Origin: Candidatus Woykebacteria bacterium
GTDB lineage: Bacteria > Patescibacteriota > Microgenomatia > Woykebacterales > RBG-16-39-9b
Direction: 5' to 3'
DNA length: 64,000 bases
Assembly: GCA_040876265.1 (NCBI GenBank)
Contig: JBBDPN010000001.1
Coordinates: forward strand, 246,208 to 310,207
The number at the start of each line of letters is the position of its first letter. Within the stretch, counting starts at the first letter, position 1. The position numbers were made by a program, and so were the translations under genes. Below the pieces are notes generated by a model. It searched no databases. It was not told the origin of the DNA and worked only from the letters and a program-made list of their open reading frames with translations. Below, piece after piece: positions 5,170 to 60,582 of the stretch.

Positions 5170-5256
5170 GCGGACGTGGCGGAATCGGTAGACGCGCAGC
5201 CTTGAGGAGGCTGTGGGAGCAATCCTGTGGAGGTTCAAGTCCTCTCGTCCGCACCA
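5170..5256 (+). tRNA. tRNA-Leu (anticodon GAG), CCA encoded
   Basis: GCGGACGTGGCGGAATCGGTAGACGCGCAGCCTTGAGGAGGCTG + long variable arm + GGTTCAAGTCC...CCGCACCA. Confidence 0.75.
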
Positions 5257-5334
5257 GGGACGGTTAGCTCAGTTGGCCAGAGCGCCTCGTTTACACCGAG
5301 GAGGTCGCAGGTTCAAGTCCTGCACCGTCCACCA
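5257..5334 (+). tRNA. tRNA-Val (anticodon UAC), CCA encoded
   Basis: GGGACGGTTAGCTCAGTTGG...CCTCGTTTACACCGAGG...GGTTCAAGTCC...CCACCA. Confidence 0.75.
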
Positions 5335-5335
5335 C

Positions 5336-5410
5336 GCCGGGATAGCTCAGTGGTAGAGCGTCCGCCTGAAGAGCGGAGCGTGGGCGGTTCGATTCCGTCT
5401 CCCGGCACCA
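5336..5410 (+). tRNA. tRNA-Phe (anticodon GAA), CCA encoded
   Basis: GCCGGGATAGCTCAGTGGTAGAGCGTCCGCCTGAAGAGCGGAG...GGTTCGATTCC...CCCGGCACCA. Confidence 0.8.
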
Positions 5411-9394: not shown

Positions 9395-9471
9395 TGGGGT
9401 GGCTGACGGGACTTGAACCCGCGACATCCGGCTCCACAAGCCAGCGCTCTACCAACTGAGCTACAGCCACC
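9395..9471 (-). tRNA. tRNA-His (anticodon GUG) with G-1, CCA encoded
   Basis: Reverse complement GGTGGCTGTAGCTCAGTTGGTAGAGCGCTGGCTTGTGGAGCCGG...GGTTCAAGTCC..CAGCCACCCCA, almost collinear with E. coli tRNA-His. Confidence 0.8.
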
Positions 9472-9474
9472 ATG

Positions 9475-9551
9475 TGGCGCGCCCGGGAGGACTCGAACCC
9501 CCAACCTTGTGGTCCGAAGCCACACGCTCTATCCGATTGAGCTACAGGCGC
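9475..9551 (-). tRNA. tRNA-Arg (anticodon UCG), CCA encoded
   Basis: Reverse complement GCGCCTGTAGCTCAATCGGATAGAGCGTGTGGCTTCGGACCACA...GGTTCGAGTCC..GGCGCGCCA. Confidence 0.7.
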
Positions 9552-9554
9552 ATC

Positions 9555-9630
9555 TGGAGCGCGAGAAGGGATTCGAACCCTCAACCTTCTCCTTGGAAGG
9601 GAGACGCTCTAGCCATTGAGCTACTCGCGC
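9555..9630 (-). tRNA. tRNA-Gly (anticodon UCC), CCA encoded
   Basis: Reverse complement GCGCGAGTAGCTCAATGGCTAGAGCGTCTCCCTTCCAAGGAGA...GGTTCGAATCC..CGCGCTCCA. Confidence 0.8.
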
Positions 9631-12135: not shown

Positions 12136-13101
12136 ATGCAAGAGGAGCTAGGACCAACTGGTGAAGATATAGAACAATACCTACCCCAGAACGAAGTTAT
12201 TTCATCCCCTGAGCTTGCAGACAATAAGTTAGCTGGGATGTGGTCTGGTCAAATTGATATTGAGAGGTTAAAAAGCCAATTTAAATCGCGGGCGGAGAAA
12301 CAAATAATAGAAACCGCTCAAGAGGACCCATTTTTAGGTTCAGTCACTTCTCCCACTGGAAATGTCGAGGTAGAACCATTCGATCGAATAATCTTAGCCA
12401 CATCTTCTCCGATTAAACAGACAATAGCTGCCGAAGTCGCGGAGGAAACTGGTGTTAATATTCAACCTACTCTACAGACCGAGATAACTACTGAAAATAA
12501 GTTAAAGGAGTTCCTCGTTGGAGCACAAACCGGTCCAGAAATAAAGGCTATTGATATCGCTGAGTTAAAACCCCCTGAACTTCCGGATCAAAAGGCACCA
12601 GTACTTTCTATGGATACTATTGTTATTAGTTCCTATAATCGGGTCTTAGAAAAACCAGAGGACCAGGAACAAGCTGCGGATATGCTCAGATCTATGTCGG
12701 GTCAAAACATCCGAATAGTTACTGCTCTTGTTATGCAATATAATTTGCCTTCTGGGAAACGATTGACTTTACGTGAGGGTGTAGAAATAGGACTAAAACT
12801 TCGCCGCTTGCCAGACGAAGAAATTAAAGAATATTGTGAGACACAGAAAGATAGAATGCTGAAAATTGCGGGTGCAATAGATTTTGCTAGTAATGAAGGA
12901 AGGAATTTAATTGATGATACAGAAGAGATAGTGGTTAAATCAGTCCAATTACCTGGTATCTCTGGTATTACCCCTCAGAATCTGCGATTATCTGTCTCCG
13001 CAATCCAGGCTTTGGATACATATTTTCGCGGTGCTCCAAAACACCCAATTAGGTTTTTGATTGAAGAATTAAAACAGATATCTGAAGGTTTTAACTGGTG
13101 A
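12136..13101 (+). CDS. Maf-like nucleoside-triphosphate pyrophosphatase with N-terminal extension
   Basis: ILATSSPIKQ..., ...DTIVIS...EKPEDQEQAADMLRSMSGQNIRIVTALVM matches the Maf/YhdE core. The first ~80 aa have no assignable function. Confidence 0.45.
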   Translation: MQEELGPTGEDIEQYLPQNEVISSPELADNKLAGMWSGQIDIERLKSQFKSRAEKQIIETAQEDPFLGSVTSPTGNVEVEPFDRIILATSSPIKQTIAAEVAEETGVNIQPTLQTEITTENKLKEFLVGAQTGPEIKAIDIAELKPPELPDQKAPVLSMDTIVISSYNRVLEKPEDQEQAADMLRSMSGQNIRIVTALVMQYNLPSGKRLTLREGVEIGLKLRRLPDEEIKEYCETQKDRMLKIAGAIDFASNEGRNLIDDTEEIVVKSVQLPGISGITPQNLRLSVSAIQALDTYFRGAPKHPIRFLIEELKQISEGFNW

Positions 13102-13170
13102 GCCCGGAGAGATTCGAACTCTCAACCCACTGCTTAAGAGGCAGTTGCTCTGCCATTGAGCTACGGGCCC
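13096..13170 (-). tRNA. tRNA-Lys (anticodon CUU), CCA encoded
   Basis: Reverse complement GGGCCCGTAGCTCAATGGCAGAGCAACTGCCTCTTAAGCAGT...GGTTCGAATC..GGGCTCACCA. Its 3' end overlaps the stop codon of the upstream CDS. Confidence 0.75.
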
Positions 13171-13196
13171 GTACTTGTGCGCAGTTAGCCGAATTA

Positions 13197-13273
13197 TGGC
13201 GCGCTTGGTGAGACTCGAACTCACAACCTGCTCCTTAGAAGGGAGCTGCTCTATCCGATTGAGCTACAAGCGC
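13197..13273 (-). tRNA. tRNA-Arg (anticodon UCU), CCA encoded
   Basis: Reverse complement GCGCTTGTAGCTCAATCGGATAGAGCAGCTCCCTTCTAAGGAGCAG...GGTTCGAGTC..AAGCGCGCCA. Confidence 0.75.
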
Positions 13274-54558: not shown

Positions 54559-54609
54559 AGGTTGCTTTGCAACCTGCGTTAAGAAACAAACCTAAGGTTG
54601 CTTTGCAAT
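54559..54609. repeat. Duplicated hairpin element (AGGTTGC-TTT-GCAACCT, then a partial copy)
   Basis: Perfect 7-bp-stem hairpin at 54559-54575. The unit aggttgctttgcaa repeats at 54595-54608. Confidence 0.4.
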
Positions 54610-54654: not shown

Positions 54655-54731
54655 GGCCCCGTCGTCTAGTGGCCTAGGATACCTGGTTTTCATCCAGGAG
54701 ATCGCGGGTTCGAATCCCGCCGGGGTCACCA
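54655..54731 (+). tRNA. tRNA-Glu (anticodon UUC), CCA encoded
   Basis: GGCCCCGTCGTCTAGTGGCCTAGGATACCTGGTTTTCATCCAGG...GGTTCGAATCC..GGGGTCACCA. Confidence 0.8.
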
Positions 54732-54913: not shown

Positions 54914-57900
54914 ATGAAAGAGTTCTTAGAGAACTATATAAAATCAATTTCAACTAAATTTTCCCACGAGGAAACCAGTGAAATGGGTTACCGTTCAGAC
55001 TTTGAGACCCTACTCAAAAAGATATTTGAATCTATTAATGTTAAGCGGATAGATCACGACGCACGGGCCAGGGAAGGCAATAAACCTGATTTTATTGTTA
55101 TCAAGGGAGAGGTGCCTATCTTATATATTGAAGCAAAAAATATCGGTACTTCTCTAGACCAAGTGGAAAAATCAGAGCAGATGGCCCGATACTTTGGTTA
55201 TGCCAATCTGGTGCTTACGGATTATGTGGAGTTTCGCTTTTATAGAAACGGTATCCGCTATGGCGAACCGGTAAAAATTGCTAATTACGATGTAAAAGGC
55301 AGAACAATTATCCCTTTACCAAAAAATTACGAATATCTTGCTAGGACACTACTAGATTTTACTCAAACACATAAGGAGCCTATAAAATCCGGTGAACATC
55401 TTTCCAAAATAATGGGTGGTAAAGCGCAAAGAATCCGCGATAATGTCCGCCAGTTCTTAGCGACAGAATCGGATAAAAACGCGGAACTTACTCGAGTTTA
55501 CGAAACTATCAAAAAGCTTCTTGTGCATGATCTAACCAAAGAATCGTTTGCCGATATGTACGCTCAAACCCTCGTTTATGGACTTTTTGCCGCCCGCTAT
55601 CACGATAAAGAGCCGGAGACTTTTTCTCGCCAGGAAGCGCGAGATCTCATTCCAAATTCTAACCCACTTCTTAGACATTTCTTTGATCACATAGTAGGTC
55701 CCAACTTTGATAAACGACTCGAACACATCGTTAACGAACTTTGCGAAGTCTTTTCCCACGCTGATGTAAACCAGCTAATGCAGGAATACTTTAAAAATGG
55801 GTCTAAAGAAAAAACCCAAAAAGGCGTAGACCCTGTTATTCACTTTTACGAAGATTTCCTAAAAGAATATAATCCTGCACTACGGAAAAGAATGGGAGCC
55901 TACTATACACCGCTTCCGGTGGTACAGTTTATAGTACGCTCTGTTGATTATTTACTTAAAAAAGAGTTTGATTTGCCTGGTGGTCTTGCTGACACCTCAA
56001 AGACAACCGATGGTCTCCATAAAGTTCAGATACTTGATCCAGCATGTGGCACCGGCACCTTTATCAGCGCAGTCATCGGCACAATTTACGCGGAGCTAAT
56101 AAAGAATGGGCAAAAAGGTCGTTGGCCGGCTTATGTCCATCATGATTTATTACCTCGTATATACGGGTTTGAGCTAATGATGGCTCCCTATACGATAGCC
56201 CATCTAAAGCTTGGAATAGCTTTCAGACAAACAAAGTTCTGGGACTTCCACCGGCGTCTTGGGATTTATCTTACAAATTCCCTTGAAGAAACTCCAATCC
56301 AAGAAGATTTATTTACGGCCTTTGGTTTTGCTGAAAGTATTGCTGAGGAGTCGAGAGAAGCTTCAATCATAAAGAACGAAACTCCAATTATGGTAGTTAT
56401 CGGCAATCCTCCATATGCTGGTATAAGTAGCAACGAAACCCCATACGCTAATAGTTTGGTTGAGCGTTACAAGGTTGAACCCGGTGGTCAGCAGAAGTTG
56501 CAAGAGCGTAAGCACTGGCTTAATGATGATTATGTGAAATTTATTGGTATGGCCGAGAGCATGATCGAAAAGACTGGTATTGGTATCGTTGCAATGATTA
56601 CCAACAACGGTTATTTAGATAACCCAACTTTTAGAGGAATGCGTTGGCATATTGCAAAAACATTTGACAAGGTTTTTTTACTGGATTTACATGGTAATTC
56701 AAAGAAAAAGGAAACTGCTCCTGATGGTACTAAGGACGAAAATGTTTTCGATATTATGCAGGGGGTTGGTATTATGCTAGCGGTCAAGATGAGTAGAAAA
56801 AGTCCTGATAAATTAGGAGAAATCTATCATGCTGAACTCTATGGAACACGACAACATAAATTTAAGGAGCTGTCAAAATCGCCGAATTGGGAAAAAATTA
56901 CCCTCGATTCCAAAATGGCCTATTTCGTACCAAAGAATACCAAGGGACAAGGTGAATACGAAAAAGGCATTAGACTTGAAGAATTGTTTTCTGTTAATAG
57001 TGTCGGGATAGTCACAGGTAAGGACAAGATAAACATCGGCTTTAGCAAGAATGAAATTATTGAACGCTTTAGGTTCATTTCAGAAAACGGCGAACAATCA
57101 ATAAGGGATAGATTTCACTTGTCGAGCAAGGACGCTCGGGATTGGACAGTATCTACTGCAAAAAGAGATGCAGAGAATAATTTTTCGGAGAATAAAGTAG
57201 TTAAGTGTTCATACAGACCTTTCGATGACAGATACACCTTTTATTCTGGAAATTCGCGAGGGGTATATGCAAGCCCACAAAGAACGGTAATGCGACATTA
57301 TTTACTAGGCGAAAACTACGGCCTCTTGTTCAGTAGAATGACAAAAGGAAAACCTTTTGCTCACGCATTTATCACTAGTCATATCTCAGAGGTGATTTTT
57401 CTATCCCCACTAACTGGAACCAATGCTTTTAATGCCCCTCTCTATATCTATTCTGAGGATGGTTTACGAACAACTAATCTAAAAAAGGAAGTTGTTTTGG
57501 AGATTGAAAAGATTGTTGGAAAATCTTCCCCGGAGGATATTTTTGACTATGTTTATGCTGTTCTTTACTTACCTAATTATCGTGAGAAGTACCAAGAATT
57601 TCTGAAAATTGATTTTCCGAGAGTTCCGTATCCAAAAGATAAAAAACAATTTCAATCGCTAATTAAACTTGGAAGAGAATTAAGAGCGTTGCATTTACTT
57701 GAATCACCAAAGTTGAATAAATTTATCACCACTTACCCTGAAAGTGGCGATGATGTCGTAGAAAAAGTTGAGTACAAGGATGGTAATGTATTTATCAATG
57801 CAAAACAGTATTTTGGGAAGGTACCGGAGGTAGCTTGGAACTTTTGGATCGGTGGTTATCAGCCAGCCCAAAAATGGCTAAAGGATCGCAAAGGTAGAAC

Positions 57901-57997
57901 CCTCACCAATGAAGATATAGAACATTATCAGAAGATAATAGTTGCACTAACGGAAACAGGTAAGATAATGGGGGAGATAGATAAAGTAGTTCAGTAA
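54914..57997 (+). CDS. Fused Type IIG (MmeI/PglX-like) restriction endonuclease / N6-adenine DNA methyltransferase
   Basis: 1027 aa. N-terminal PD-(D/E)xK-like motif (PDFIVIKG...YIEAK). Gamma-class MTase motif I DPACGTGTF and motif IV NPPY (VIGNPPYAGISS). C-terminal WNFWIGGYQPAQKWLKDRKGR..L...D..HY region, typical of this family. Confidence 0.55.
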   Translation: MKEFLENYIKSISTKFSHEETSEMGYRSDFETLLKKIFESINVKRIDHDARAREGNKPDFIVIKGEVPILYIEAKNIGTSLDQVEKSEQMARYFGYANLVLTDYVEFRFYRNGIRYGEPVKIANYDVKGRTIIPLPKNYEYLARTLLDFTQTHKEPIKSGEHLSKIMGGKAQRIRDNVRQFLATESDKNAELTRVYETIKKLLVHDLTKESFADMYAQTLVYGLFAARYHDKEPETFSRQEARDLIPNSNPLLRHFFDHIVGPNFDKRLEHIVNELCEVFSHADVNQLMQEYFKNGSKEKTQKGVDPVIHFYEDFLKEYNPALRKRMGAYYTPLPVVQFIVRSVDYLLKKEFDLPGGLADTSKTTDGLHKVQILDPACGTGTFISAVIGTIYAELIKNGQKGRWPAYVHHDLLPRIYGFELMMAPYTIAHLKLGIAFRQTKFWDFHRRLGIYLTNSLEETPIQEDLFTAFGFAESIAEESREASIIKNETPIMVVIGNPPYAGISSNETPYANSLVERYKVEPGGQQKLQERKHWLNDDYVKFIGMAESMIEKTGIGIVAMITNNGYLDNPTFRGMRWHIAKTFDKVFLLDLHGNSKKKETAPDGTKDENVFDIMQGVGIMLAVKMSRKSPDKLGEIYHAELYGTRQHKFKELSKSPNWEKITLDSKMAYFVPKNTKGQGEYEKGIRLEELFSVNSVGIVTGKDKINIGFSKNEIIERFRFISENGEQSIRDRFHLSSKDARDWTVSTAKRDAENNFSENKVVKCSYRPFDDRYTFYSGNSRGVYASPQRTVMRHYLLGENYGLLFSRMTKGKPFAHAFITSHISEVIFLSPLTGTNAFNAPLYIYSEDGLRTTNLKKEVVLEIEKIVGKSSPEDIFDYVYAVLYLPNYREKYQEFLKIDFPRVPYPKDKKQFQSLIKLGRELRALHLLESPKLNKFITTYPESGDDVVEKVEYKDGNVFINAKQYFGKVPEVAWNFWIGGYQPAQKWLKDRKGRTLTNEDIEHYQKIIVALTETGKIMGEIDKVVQ

Positions 57998-58019
57998 GAA
58001 AAGTGGTTCCGAAGTAAAT

Positions 58020-59318
58020 TTAGTTTATGGTTGCGGTTTCTCTATCTATCGGTATTTCAGGTTTGCTTTCTTCAACTATCTTAGTTTTTACCCGTGCCTT
58101 TTCATCTTTAGAAATTTCATCTGCCATATCATCAACTATCGAAAAGACTTCCAGCTTTAAATCTTCAAGATTACCTTTTGTTTTTTCTATCCCAGTACCA
58201 ATACTAGATAGAGAACTTTTTATAGATGAAATCGAGTTTATCTTACTTCTTATTTGTCCTAGATAACCTTCCAATTTAACTAGATTAACCTTTTTATCTT
58301 CGGTTTTTATTTCGTTGAGCGCTTCCAACCTAGCAAACTTATAGGCAACCTCTAGGGCGGTGGAATCCTTGGTTTCTTTATCAAAAACGCATAATATTCT
58401 TCCACCTGGATAGGCTCTAAAGTTTCCACTCTCTCCAGGAGCGTTTTCTAATTTACTAAAGACTCCTATCGCGACTTGAGCATCCCTATTTTGTTTAGCT
58501 TCATCTAGTTCTTTCAAAATTGAAGGAAGGGTTTTCTGTTGATCCTTCGCTTCCAGTACAATACTCAAACTGTTTCCACCTGAATGGTGCGGATTTATCT
58601 TCGACAGCACATCACCCGTCTTAGAATTAAGAATTTTTCCATTTATGTTACTAGTATCAATGACATTATCATCTAAAATTTTTGCTATATTGTTGATAAT
58701 CTGTAACACTAAGTCTTGATAAACAACACCCTTAGCCGTTCCTTTTTCTTCAACCTCTGCCACAGCCTCTTTAATTTTGAGAGCTTTTTCGATATTGTCT
58801 ATTTTATCCGTCAATTCTTTTTTTAATCTAAATATTGGACTACCTGGATCTGAACTATCTAGTAGTTTATATATTACAGATCCGTCACCTTCAAAGTGCC
58901 TTTTGAAAATATCGGAAAGCTTACCTAGGGCGCTGTTCCTTTGGTTCTCATCAAAAAGATCCTGTAGCTTACCACCTTCGCCAAGATACTCTTTTAAAAC
59001 AAGAGGCATAACACCGTTTTCGCTAAAAATTTTATCTAGTCTATTGTCTATTTCTGTGGTGGTATCCTCTAAAAGTTTTTCAACGTGATTTTTTACCTTG
59101 CTAAATTCTTTTTCTACATAATCTACATTTTCAGTTACGCCCACATTTTTCATAGCAATCAAACCCACCTTTAGGGCCTTCCTTACTGTTTCTGCCTTTT
59201 CCTTTTCGGCTAAACCTTCAACTATTGAGGCTACTTCAGCATCCTCAATAATCAAATCTGAAATATATACCTGATTTTTCTCGACTTTTAATTTCATAAG
59301 GTGTTTATTATAAGACAC
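58020..59318 (-). CDS. RmuC-like coiled-coil protein with PD-(D/E)xK-type C-terminal domain
   Basis: 432 aa. Coiled-coil N-terminal half. The C-terminus (KGVVYQDLVLQIINNI..., GDVLSKI...SIVLEAKDQQ, VAIGVFSKLENAPGE) resembles the RmuC nuclease-like core. A TTGAAC-16-TTATAAT promoter lies just upstream. Confidence 0.35.
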   Translation of the reverse strand: MSYNKHLMKLKVEKNQVYISDLIIEDAEVASIVEGLAEKEKAETVRKALKVGLIAMKNVGVTENVDYVEKEFSKVKNHVEKLLEDTTTEIDNRLDKIFSENGVMPLVLKEYLGEGGKLQDLFDENQRNSALGKLSDIFKRHFEGDGSVIYKLLDSSDPGSPIFRLKKELTDKIDNIEKALKIKEAVAEVEEKGTAKGVVYQDLVLQIINNIAKILDDNVIDTSNINGKILNSKTGDVLSKINPHHSGGNSLSIVLEAKDQQKTLPSILKELDEAKQNRDAQVAIGVFSKLENAPGESGNFRAYPGGRILCVFDKETKDSTALEVAYKFARLEALNEIKTEDKKVNLVKLEGYLGQIRSKINSISSIKSSLSSIGTGIEKTKGNLEDLKLEVFSIVDDMADEISKDEKARVKTKIVEESKPEIPIDRETATIN

Positions 59319-59453
59319 TTAAGCCAGGCGTTCAATAGCCAGCACAGTAACACTTCACAATCTTGACAGTCTCTTTTAGACTTTCCATTAATGCGCTATC
59401 TCAATGACGAGCCAATAATGAATGGTGAAAAAGGGCCAATTTATTAGTCTGGG

Positions 59454-59609
59454 CTAGTCTTTCCAGACATATTTGTATCCTATTGGCGCAATCGGTTTTA
59501 TAGGCCGAATTGGTTTAATCGGTTTGATTGGTTTGATTGGCTGGATTGGCCTAATCGGCTTTATAGTCTTTATTTTGAATTTATTATCCCTTACCAGTTT
59601 CCACGGCAT
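59454..59609 (-). CDS. 51-aa (KPI)n tripeptide-repeat micropeptide
   Basis: Translation by hand: MPWKLVRDNKFKIKTIKPIRPIQPIKPIKPIKPIRPIKPIAPIGYKYVWKD. A GGGGGTGA SD-like sequence lies 8 nt upstream. Same strand as the lexA-like and DUF3892 genes, and directly downstream of them. Confidence 0.35.
   Translation of the reverse strand: MPWKLVRDNKFKIKTIKPIRPIQPIKPIKPIKPIRPIKPIAPIGYKYVWKD
59481..59570. repeat. Ten tandem 9-bp repeats (consensus aatcggttt/gattggttt)
   Basis: Directly visible in the sequence. These units encode the KPI repeats on the minus strand. Confidence 0.75.
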
Positions 59610-59636
59610 AACTTATTCACCCCCAACCCAAATTCG

Positions 59637-59930
59637 TTAGATGGGACATTCGTCCAAAGCAAGTAAATTGTTTGGATAATCTCCATCAGCGGTTGTTTTA
59701 ATGTATTTATTCCCTTTAGCACTAATAGCAACGATGACTTTCACAGGGTCGTTGTTAACATCAACGTAAAAATCATACTTACCGTTTTCTATGTAGTTTA
59801 TTGCTTCCTGTTGGGTAATCTTCCATCGACTACCGTCTGGATTTACACCTCCAACATGGGTAATTGCCTCGTATGGGCTGTTTCTATTGTCTTTGTGGAT
59901 ACAAGATATTCTTACTGACATCTGATACAC
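59637..59930 (-). CDS. DUF3892 domain protein
   Basis: Has ITHVGG....G..W..T..EAI..IE.G...FYV......V.V......G..Y..T..DG...NNLL.L.EC, the DUF3892 consensus. Confidence 0.65.
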
Positions 59931-59937
59931 TTCCTTA

Positions 59938-60564
59938 TCAATCTAAATTTGGAATAGTTGTAACGACTACCCCCTGAATTCTAAAGTTGCCTTCTAAAAT
60001 TATTGGCTTGTGAGATTTGTTTGACGATCTGGGTTTCAAAACCACCACATTTCCAGTACGTTGAAATTCCTTGATTGTTGCATCATCATCAATAAGGGCT
60101 ACAACTTTATCCCCGTCTTTTGCTACAGCTTGCTGTCGGATTAGTACCAGGTCGCCATCTTTAATTCCAACCTCATCCATGGAATCACCACTTACCTTTA
60201 GCAAGAAGTACTTAGATCCAGGTTCTGCTATGGTCGTGGAAACAGGTAAATACCCTTCAACGTTTTCCTCTGCAAATAGTGGATTACCACATGAAACCAT
60301 ACCAACTATCGGTACATCAATTGTTTGATATATGTGCTGTCCCAGATCCGGGTTTAAAACTAGTTTGTAATGCCCGTCTTCAAATTTTTTGATGATGCCT
60401 TTTTGTTGCAGGGTAAAGAGTATCTCCTGAACAGATTTTATTGATTTCGACTCCAAAAGCCCCATCAGCTCCCTTATTGAGGGGCTTCTTCCCTTATGAA
60501 CTGTGTGGTTTCTAATATGTTTTATTGCCTCTATTTGTTTCGGCGTGAACTCATCGGGGTTCAT
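59938..60564 (-). CDS. Second LexA-like S24-peptidase repressor (UmuD-like Cys-Gly cleavage site)
   Basis: N-terminal wHTH (about 75 aa). Cleavage region ...VSCGNPLF with Cys-Gly, as in UmuD, in place of the Ala-Gly of the housekeeping LexA. Ser nucleophile in SGDSM and Lys in ATIKEF. Confidence 0.8.
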
Positions 60565-60566
60565 AT

Positions 60567-60582
60567 TGGTACGATTGTACCA
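60567..60582. promoter_or_regulatory. Palindromic operator TGGTAC-gatt-GTACCA directly upstream of the lexA-like start
   Basis: 16-bp near-perfect palindrome located 3 nt upstream of the ATG, overlapping a TACAAT -10-like hexamer. The GTAC-N4-GTAC architecture resembles the cyanobacterial-type LexA box RGTAC-N3-DGTWCB. Confidence 0.45.

Follow-up and report, generated by a model that had tools for sequence, protein, structure and literature searches.

In a 64,000-nucleotide stretch of a Candidatus Woykebacteria contig (JBBDPN010000001.1, positions 246,208 to 310,207; the whole stretch is referred to below as the window), a short open reading frame (ORF) downstream of a lexA gene encodes a mini-protein with nine consecutive x-Pro-Ile triplets. 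We found this ORF to be a genuine protein-coding gene under purifying selection on its amino acids. Its product belongs to a previously undescribed mini-protein family; we tentatively place it among the intracellular accessories or effectors of defence modules that are derepressed by DNA damage.

The gene and its product

The original prediction, made from the letters of the window, had described the ORF as encoding a tripeptide-repeat peptide, and the minus-strand translation is exactly the one it gave: MPWKLVRDNKFKIKTIKPIRPIQPIKPIKPIKPIRPIKPIAPIGYKYVWKD, laid out as MPWKLVRDNKFKIKTI(xPI)9GYKYVWKD (Table 1 collects the coordinates of the window features). With a computed mass of 6.1 kDa, an isoelectric point (pI) of 10.7 and a net charge of +12, the product has a composition for which the description as a cationic polyproline peptide is plausible. 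The ten tandem in-frame 9-bp units of the prediction are also present, and they translate as one KTI followed by nine xPI triplets, so that the three registers of the array read KKRQKKKRKA, TPPPPPPPPP and IIIIIIIIII. Tandem Repeats Finder (TRF) returned periods of 9 and 18 for the array, and a separate repeat search found copies 9 apart. Nine is the longest run of x-P-[IVL] triplets in the six frames of the window; it is far beyond chance, since 100 shuffles of the window reached runs of two or three and never exceeded three. The repeat contains no glycine, its registers being K/R/Q, P and I, and it lacks the glycine at every third residue that marks a collagen-like triple helix.

A Shine-Dalgarno (SD)-like site, GGGGGTGA, precedes the ATG. 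The prediction was right about the site and off by one about its distance, which is 7 nucleotides (nt) and not 8. The same GGTGAATAAGTT-ATG context is found in the homologous locus L001 and, with one substitution in the spacer, in L009. The gene is absent from the public annotation of the source genome and from that of two related assemblies. Gene callers routinely miss small proteins, and this is one such uncalled case.

A protein family under purifying selection

A word-indexed search of 5.8 billion proteins yielded 27 small homologues of 49 to 82 amino acids (aa). An exhaustive search of 1.84 billion cluster representatives with a hidden Markov model (HMM) gave 134 matches, about 60 of which are full-length members (39 to 77 aa), each standing for a cluster at 50% identity. 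The remaining HMM matches, to long proteins, and the apparent hits in Prevotella and Bacteroidaceae were discarded as non-members: they match the repeat only and lack both termini. True members share the N-terminus M-[PSA]-W-x-L-[RV]-K-[KD], which leads into the run of x-P-[IVL] triplets, and the C-terminus RP[IV]KP[IVL]AP[IVL]G-[YHQK]-x-Y-x-W-[RK]-D; M1, W3, L5, R35, K38, P39, P42, G44 and W49 are invariant. Scans of GTDB genomes and JGI metagenomes brought the collection to 88 loci, which form 63 distinct locus groups and encode 57 different full-length peptides.

The window member comes from a metagenome-assembled genome (MAG) of the Candidate Phyla Radiation (CPR). Carriers among titled genomes include Acidobacteriota (Terracidiphilus, Sulfotelmatobacter, Silvibacterium), Actinobacteriota (Streptomycetaceae, Solirubrobacterales), Gammaproteobacteria (Rhodanobacter among them), Chloroflexia and Verrucomicrobiota. 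The family moves horizontally between bacterial phyla. Across loci whose GC content runs from 0.29 to 0.65 the amino acids are conserved and changes at third codon positions prevail, which upholds the earlier claim of a micropeptide gene. In 155 gap-free pairwise comparisons, codon positions 1, 2 and 3 differ 1651, 898 and 4461 times, respectively, and 3242 codon changes are synonymous as against 1948 that are non-synonymous. Among four aligned loci, similarity starts at the ribosome-binding site and stops at the stop codon, and, of 15 inspected homologues, most have a GGAGG- or GGTGA-type site ahead of their ATG. Frameshifted or truncated copies (L016, L021, L077/78 and the cluster representatives P0028, P0060, P0063, P0064 and P0093) are a small minority and look like products of decay or assembly error, not like a switch.

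On the opposite strand, a hydrophobic (IGL)n ORF of 55 aa (59473-59640, plus strand) was worth checking because its third codon positions coincide with those of the sense frame. Stop codons interrupt it in 7 of 15 homologues, and the conservative K/R/Q changes of the sense strand become L/W/C/R in this frame. The antisense ORF is a by-product of the sense repeat.

Scans of the peptide against Pfam, NCBIfam, PHROGs and PADLOC produced sub-threshold, low-complexity matches only. No match was found in the PDB, no member of the family turned up in phage, plasmid and IMG/VR collections, and nothing on this family came up in the literature, whether under the repeat string or among small proline-rich proteins of defence islands. 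We rate the family as new because no curated family, solved structure or paper was found for it, and because its architecture and genomic behaviour fit no described kind of small protein.

Repeat number is maintained

The array had also been taken for a slippage-prone substrate of phase variation, with a comparison of repeat number between strains or metagenome reads as the proposed check. In such a contingency locus, slipped-strand mispairing of the 9-bp repeat would switch or resize the product. The tandem 9-bp periodicity, a repeat-unit count of 3 to 11 across the whole family and the few frameshifted relatives are all compatible with this idea; the make-up of the array and its history are not. 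The ten units comprise nine distinct 9-mers, and exact period-9 repetition extends over 20 nt at most; this synonymous scrambling of units is the reverse of what a slippage tract keeps. L034, assembled independently from the same organism, shows not one base of difference across the peptide gene and its flanks. The peptide gene of the ortholog L115 has 77% DNA identity to that of the window, from which it departs by 21 synonymous and 8 non-synonymous codon changes, and it has exactly 51 codons. Neither comparison revealed any length polymorphism. Across the family, the distance from the first to the last tryptophan is 45 residues in 31 of the 57 distinct members (range 37 to 54), a few representatives from the HMM search being shorter, down to 39 aa. 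The claim of slippage fails on these results, and phase variation must be considered exceedingly improbable.

The lexA-DUF3892-peptide block

The placement of the peptide gene behind the LexA and DUF3892 genes withstood scrutiny: the orthologous locus L115 also has it as the third cistron of the three. Gaps of 16 nt (lexA to DUF3892) and 27 nt (DUF3892 to the peptide gene) separate the three genes, and no terminator was predicted inside the block. The DUF3892 protein is 100% identical to one named by NCBI from a Candidatus Woykebacteria MAG. Just ahead of lexA, an extended -10-like element is overlapped by the palindrome GGTAC-N4-GTACC (GGTACAATCGTACC; 60568-60581), which is the sole palindrome of its kind in the window and represents a candidate CPR LexA operator; L115 has kept it, and L116 has kept part of it. 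The position of these elements right before the lexA ATG implies a very short or absent leader.

That the peptide gene is the last of the operon, as originally proposed, is plausible and not certain: a gene of 425 or 432 aa follows on the same strand 156 nt downstream, with a promoter-like site of its own and no predicted terminator in between. This gene, which sits between the peptide gene and a restriction-modification gene, has been seen only at the source-genome locus. It does not adjoin the peptide gene elsewhere and is unrelated to the DNA after the L115 peptide. GC content is 0.36 to 0.38 over windows spanning 56500-59999, as against 0.41 to 0.46 on the flanks. Mobile-element signs were sought at the locus (flanking repeats, an att copy of the tRNA-Glu gene, an attC-like structure), and the sole trace was an inverted match of 10 nt with the SD site inside it; there was no att repeat and no tRNA-derived repeat, and no integrase was seen. 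Upstream of the tRNA-Glu gene, a 14-nt direct repeat, AGGTTGCTTTGCAA, occurs at 54559 and 54595. Thirteen of the 15 tRNA genes of the window lie in its first 13 kb, in tight clusters at 2388-2747, 5170-5410, 9395-9630 and 13096-13273.

Table 1. Features of the mini-protein locus, in window coordinates
Feature	Position	Strand	Basis and remarks
xPI-repeat mini-protein CDS	59454..59609	minus	51 codons; ATG 59609-59607, stop TAG at 59454; homologues and same-length ortholog
Ten in-frame 9-bp units	59481..59570	minus	residues 14-43; KTI first, then nine xPI
Shine-Dalgarno-like site GGGGGTGA	59617..59624	minus	spacer of 7 nt to the peptide ATG
DUF3892 protein	59637..59921	minus	94 aa from ATG; Pfam PF13031, E 2.8e-19; phrog_8224
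LexA (LexA DNA-binding domain and S24 peptidase)	59938..60564	minus	Pfam; TIGR00498 lexA equivalog, 156.6 bits (cut-off 110.95); opens the block
Extended -10-like TGgTACAAT overlapped by palindrome GGTAC-N4-GTACC	60568..60582	minus	directly before the lexA ATG
Promoter-like TTGAAC-17-TATAAT	59335-59307	minus	ahead of the 425/432-aa gene
432-aa ORF	58020..59318	minus	the L034 call starts at ATG 59297 and gives 425 aa; matches none of Pfam, NCBIfam, PADLOC and PHROGs
Type IIG / Type ISP restriction-modification enzyme	54914..57997	plus	Pfam; PADLOC REase_MTase_IIG, E 8e-276; convergent with the peptide block
tRNA-Glu	54655..54731	plus	borders the low-GC restriction-modification segment, 182 nt before the type IIG/ISP gene

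Related loci tell something of the history of the block. In L115, where the DUF3892 protein is 84% identical to that of the window, the lexA-DUF3892-peptide order is retained and the DNA beyond the peptide is unrelated. A close relative, L116 (DUF3892 85% identical), has a nuclease-like gene after lexA and DUF3892 instead of the peptide gene. A contig from the same sample as the window (L117, Logan SRR27977662, 1-5822) holds a second, paralogous LexA-like/DUF3892/restriction-modification module, which is devoid of the peptide. As L115 keeps the peptide and L116 and L117 do not, the peptide travels with lexA-DUF3892 in this lineage but is dispensable. On one strand, L117 encodes an Alw26I-type endonuclease, a C5 methylase, an N6/Eco57I-type methylase and the LexA-like repressor; on the divergent side, the DUF3892 gene (product 74% identical to that of the window) is followed by ORFs of 104 and 61 aa. 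Loci L103 and L108 have the same LexA-like and methylase layout as L117, with a tripeptide-repeat gene in the divergent slot. In a Coriobacteriia MAG (L119-L121), a YdjM-family gene comes next after a DUF3892 homologue. YdjM is part of the LexA regulon of E. coli, and its presence beside DUF3892 would be another hint tying DUF3892 to the DNA-damage response.

Gene neighbourhoods across the family

The gene upstream of the peptide is co-directional with it in 41 of 56 groups and lies no more than 100 nt away in 28, several gaps being of 0 to 3 nt; the peptide gene is usually the terminal small cistron of varied operons. Within a radius of about 4.5 kb, a cleavable repressor, either LexA-like or composed of a helix-turn-helix (HTH) domain with an M78 or CapP-like peptidase, was found in 11 of the 63 locus groups, the window included. 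By no means all groups have one, although many contigs do not extend far enough for a judgement. Five of these groups carry a LexA-like S24 repressor: the window locus (WIN, with its ortholog L115), L079 and L087, where the repressor gene is co-directional with the peptide gene, and L103 and L108, where it is divergent. The other six (L007, L010, L011, L015, L062 and L110) have a peptidase of the M78 or CapP-like type, in some cases together with an HTH domain; L015 and L110 contain HTH-M78 fusions.

About 20 locus groups include restriction-modification, Bil/ubiquitin-like, TIR, SIR2 or similar genes. Restriction-modification systems (type IIG, BcgI-like A+S, or GmrSD with a methylase) account for eight groups, namely WIN, L001, L009, L079, L085, L087, L103 and L108. 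Ubiquitin-like systems of the BilD or ThiF-E1 type occur in L007, L010, L011, L021 and L062; BilD itself is present in three groups, and the E1/E2/JAB/Ubl operons of L007, L010, L011 and L062 come with M78 or CapP-like regulators. In L113, DUF3892 is again immediately upstream of the peptide, with a gap of 0 nt. Genes for CAP12/ThsB-type TIR, SIR2, PDC-S08 5'-nucleotidase, Schlafen/AlbA_2, SLATT, PD-(D/E)XK and HNH proteins are found in various groups.

Some local arrangements recur. In L001, L009 and L024, the peptide stop codon lies 0 to 3 nt from that of a convergent gene, which encodes a restriction-modification protein, GmrSD, or a protein of 350 to 379 aa common to L024 and L035; the corresponding gap is about 10 to 80 nt in L035 and L085. 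The closest of these pairs leave no room for a terminator, and their transcripts would therefore overlap. Homologous proteins of 88 to 89 aa are encoded directly upstream of the peptide at L041:1070-1336 and L085:236-505; they match phrog_17428 and, by eye, resemble KTSC domains. In the subfamily with MSWKLRKDPNHPMWG... (L036, L037, L046/L056), the peptide gene comes, in three locus groups, about 39 nt after a conserved gene pair for a 431-aa protein and a 264-aa radical S-adenosylmethionine (SAM)-like protein. The latter gives weak matches to PF04055 and DUF5131 and corresponds to phrog_13321.

Predicted structure

AlphaFold2, run with the family alignment on the window protein and on a 59-residue member, produced the same layout in both, with mean predicted local distance difference test (pLDDT) values of 76 and 69, respectively. 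Predicted strands at residues 3-7 and 45-49 of the window protein (2-7 and 48-53 of the longer member) flank a proline-rich stretch left unclassified by DSSP. Going by these assignments of secondary structure, the terminal aromatic strands would probably pair as a two-stranded sheet and close the proline stretch into a loop. Were that stretch to adopt a polyproline-II (PPII) helix, Lys/Arg, Pro and Ile side chains would be sorted onto three faces, basic, proline and aliphatic. Two Pfam profiles that touch residues 14-43 only were rejected. Amelogenin (PF02948, 19.6 bits) stays below its gathering threshold on this low-complexity repeat, and the four-fold beta-flower (PF21784) scores 23.1 bits against a threshold of 25. 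Beta-flowers are barrels of 8 to 12 strands with a [DNEQ]xxG hairpin motif (PMC10584680), whereas the mini-protein lacks this motif and its model has only two strands.

Discussion

We favour, at a little less than an even chance, the interpretation that the mini-protein is an intracellular accessory or effector of damage-derepressed defence modules and binds a universally conserved target. The lexA-DUF3892-peptide block would be co-transcribed from the lexA promoter. DNA damage or phage attack would lead to LexA cleavage, derepression of the block and synthesis of the peptide, because the sole promoter-like site upstream of the block is overlapped by the operator-like palindrome. Once made, the peptide might bind the ribosome or RNA, a chaperone or a nucleic acid inside the cell, modulation of restriction being another candidate activity. 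An intracellular and universally conserved target appears most likely because the protein lacks both a signal peptide and a conserved partner, and because the hosts are so different.

This picture fits what is known of the neighbours. Operons of just these kinds, with DUF3892 proteins, with ubiquitin-like 6a/6e systems or with an HTH protein paired to a metallopeptidase, are described as flanked by CapH/CapP-like regulators that respond to DNA damage (Lau et al. 2022, 10.1101/2022.04.27.489752). For the fold of DUF3892, a likeness to the double-stranded RNA-binding domain and to ribosome hibernation factors has been pointed out, and a sensor role has been proposed (10.1101/2025.01.14.632903). 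Neither report mentions the tripeptide-repeat mini-protein. It is tempting to speculate further that the family is a new class of intracellular effector, with its proline repeat set between aromatic end strands, released upon cleavage of a LexA-like or CapH/CapP-like repressor and acting with or downstream of DUF3892 on a conserved machine, most attractively the ribosome, so that translation is halted during DNA damage or phage infection. We think this bolder version unlikely; if it is true, bacteria would possess in the mini-protein an endogenous equivalent of the proline-rich peptides with which animals target ribosomes.

Several observations weigh against assigning the mini-protein to damage-derepressed defence modules. 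The close relative L116 carries a different gene after lexA-DUF3892, and the L117 module does without the peptide. No neighbour is conserved across the whole family, and many of the nearest neighbours are housekeeping genes, such as those for ribonucleotide reductase, fumarase, thioredoxin and RNase HII; RecG and RuvA genes occur as neighbours as well. No canonical SOS box was found upstream of the 63 peptide genes, stand-alone copies included. Gene calls in the retrieved loci derive from a longest-ORF heuristic. Most metagenome contigs are short and the neighbourhood counts are uncontrolled, which makes the association with defence and regulator genes semi-quantitative. The AlphaFold2 models are of moderate confidence, with predicted template modelling (pTM) scores of 0.35 to 0.38, and Foldseek retrieved nothing similar to them from the PDB or BFVD. 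Finally, some members are weakly basic, and two representatives from the HMM search, P0044 and P0048, have alternating acidic positions in the repeat. These members argue against simple binding of a polycation to nucleic acid, and the acidic positions of P0044 and P0048 imply that the conserved part is the scaffold with the last two repeats and the aromatic tail, not the charge.

The main rival account, to which we grant an appreciable but minor chance, regards the gene as a neutral or selfish small cargo ORF, transferred horizontally into variable regions where defence genes and repressors also gather. The missing family-wide neighbour speaks for it, as do the very heterogeneous flanks with housekeeping genes among them, the lack of matches in phage, plasmid or IMG/VR collections from which a vehicle could be defined, and the pseudogenised copies in L016, L021, L077/78 and the frameshifted cluster representatives. 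Cargo of this kind is hard to reconcile with strong purifying selection across phyla and with the recurrent tight coupling to the upstream cistron, the gaps being 0 to 3 nt in L079, L087 and L113. S24 or M78/CapP-like regulators, given the rarity of such genes, would be expected near a few percent of loci and yet occur within about 4.5 kb in 11 of 63 groups. Moreover, the three-gene block has been kept in L115 despite the changed downstream DNA. One might also picture the peptide as a modulator of restriction-modification that, once made upon cleavage of the LexA-like repressor, tunes or alleviates restriction and so spares unmethylated repair DNA. DNA-damage-induced restriction alleviation is established (PMC4231737, PMC11109961). 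All five loci of the window-type subfamily listed here (WIN, L079, L087, L103, L108) combine the peptide with a LexA-like gene and a type IIG/IIB-like restriction-modification system. The stop codon of the specificity subunit and the start of the peptide are 2 to 3 nt apart in L079 and L087, and L001, L009 and L085 adjoin restriction genes. However, many members lie beside Bil, TIR, SIR2 or PDC-S08 genes or have no restriction-modification system at all, and the L115 block has no adjacent restriction-modification gene within its contig. Typical anti-restriction proteins are acidic DNA mimics; the mini-protein is basic and bears no similarity to the known ones. A role in restriction seems quite improbable to us.

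An exported or membrane-active peptide of the bacteriocin kind is less probable still, and we give it very little credence. The antimicrobial-like character suggested by the original prediction, taken as implying export, draws on a cationic sequence with proline at every third residue, which would be amphipathic as a PPII helix, and a peptide carried by a bacteriocin transporter as its cargo showed a weak, non-significant likeness (E 0.32). That suggestion did not hold up: none of the members has an N-terminal signal, a hydrophobic N-terminus or a double-glycine leader, no transporter, immunity or maturase gene is conserved, and P0044 and P0048 depart from a cationic repeat through their alternating acidic positions. 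The regular 9-bp spacing could also belong to an iteron-type, non-coding array for protein binding or to a structured RNA. Conservation resides in the amino acids and not in the nucleotides; furthermore, shuffled sequence folds as well as the RNA itself (z = -0.18), and the Rfam matches are tRNAs only. A precursor of a ribosomally synthesised and post-translationally modified peptide (RiPP) comes to mind for subfamily (c), which directly follows a radical-SAM-like gene and a 431-aa gene in three locus groups. This neighbour is limited to that one subfamily and falls below the Pfam threshold, and no maturase is adjacent family-wide. Iteron, RNA and RiPP precursor together have next to no likelihood in our estimation.

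If the mini-protein is a working part of these modules, it constitutes an unrecognised component of LexA- and CapH/CapP-controlled immunity and offers a handle on DUF3892 systems. If it is not, it is still a well-defined mini-protein built from repeats, the number of which is fixed by selection and not varied by slippage. Homologues are carried by cultivable genera, which makes the family readily testable.

Comparison with known systems

SidA, YneA, TisB and DinQ are SOS-induced small proteins that are membrane peptides or contain a transmembrane or LysM segment. Like them, the mini-protein is very small and linked to lexA through its gene, and its synthesis presumably follows LexA cleavage; unlike them, it is soluble and basic, lacks a hydrophobic helix and is found beyond one lineage. 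An SOS-type small membrane toxin or division inhibitor was rejected as an identity for it, as there is no hydrophobic segment and no canonical SOS box upstream of the stand-alone copies. Another point of reference is provided by the VHLPPP repeat of gamma-zein and the 'sweet arrow' peptides, plant or designed amphipathic PPII helices with three prolines per unit. As in these peptides, a three-residue period would give charged, proline and hydrophobic side chains a PPII face each. The mini-protein differs in having one proline per triplet, in being a natural bacterial product and in its termini, which are predicted to be structured.

The animal proline-rich antimicrobial peptides Bac7, oncocin and apidaecin are short, cationic and secreted, with prolines regularly spaced by basic and hydrophobic residues in PRP or PPX motifs; they have no aromatic terminal clasp. 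Their targets are the exit tunnel of the ribosome and DnaK. We found no sequence homology between them and the mini-protein. Differences lie in the bacterial origin of the latter, in the absence of an export signal, in the strict x-P-[IVL] period of three and in the conserved Trp/Tyr termini. The likeness consists of a short, cationic chain with regularly spaced proline, and conserved intracellular targets like theirs would suit a function in unrelated hosts.

The comparison with defence operons regulated by CapH/CapP concerns gene context. The window regulator is a bona fide LexA with an S24 domain and not an HTH plus M78 pair. On the other hand, the same types of module surround the peptide, DUF3892 accompanies it in WIN, L115 and L113, and in both cases the regulator is a cleavable repressor.

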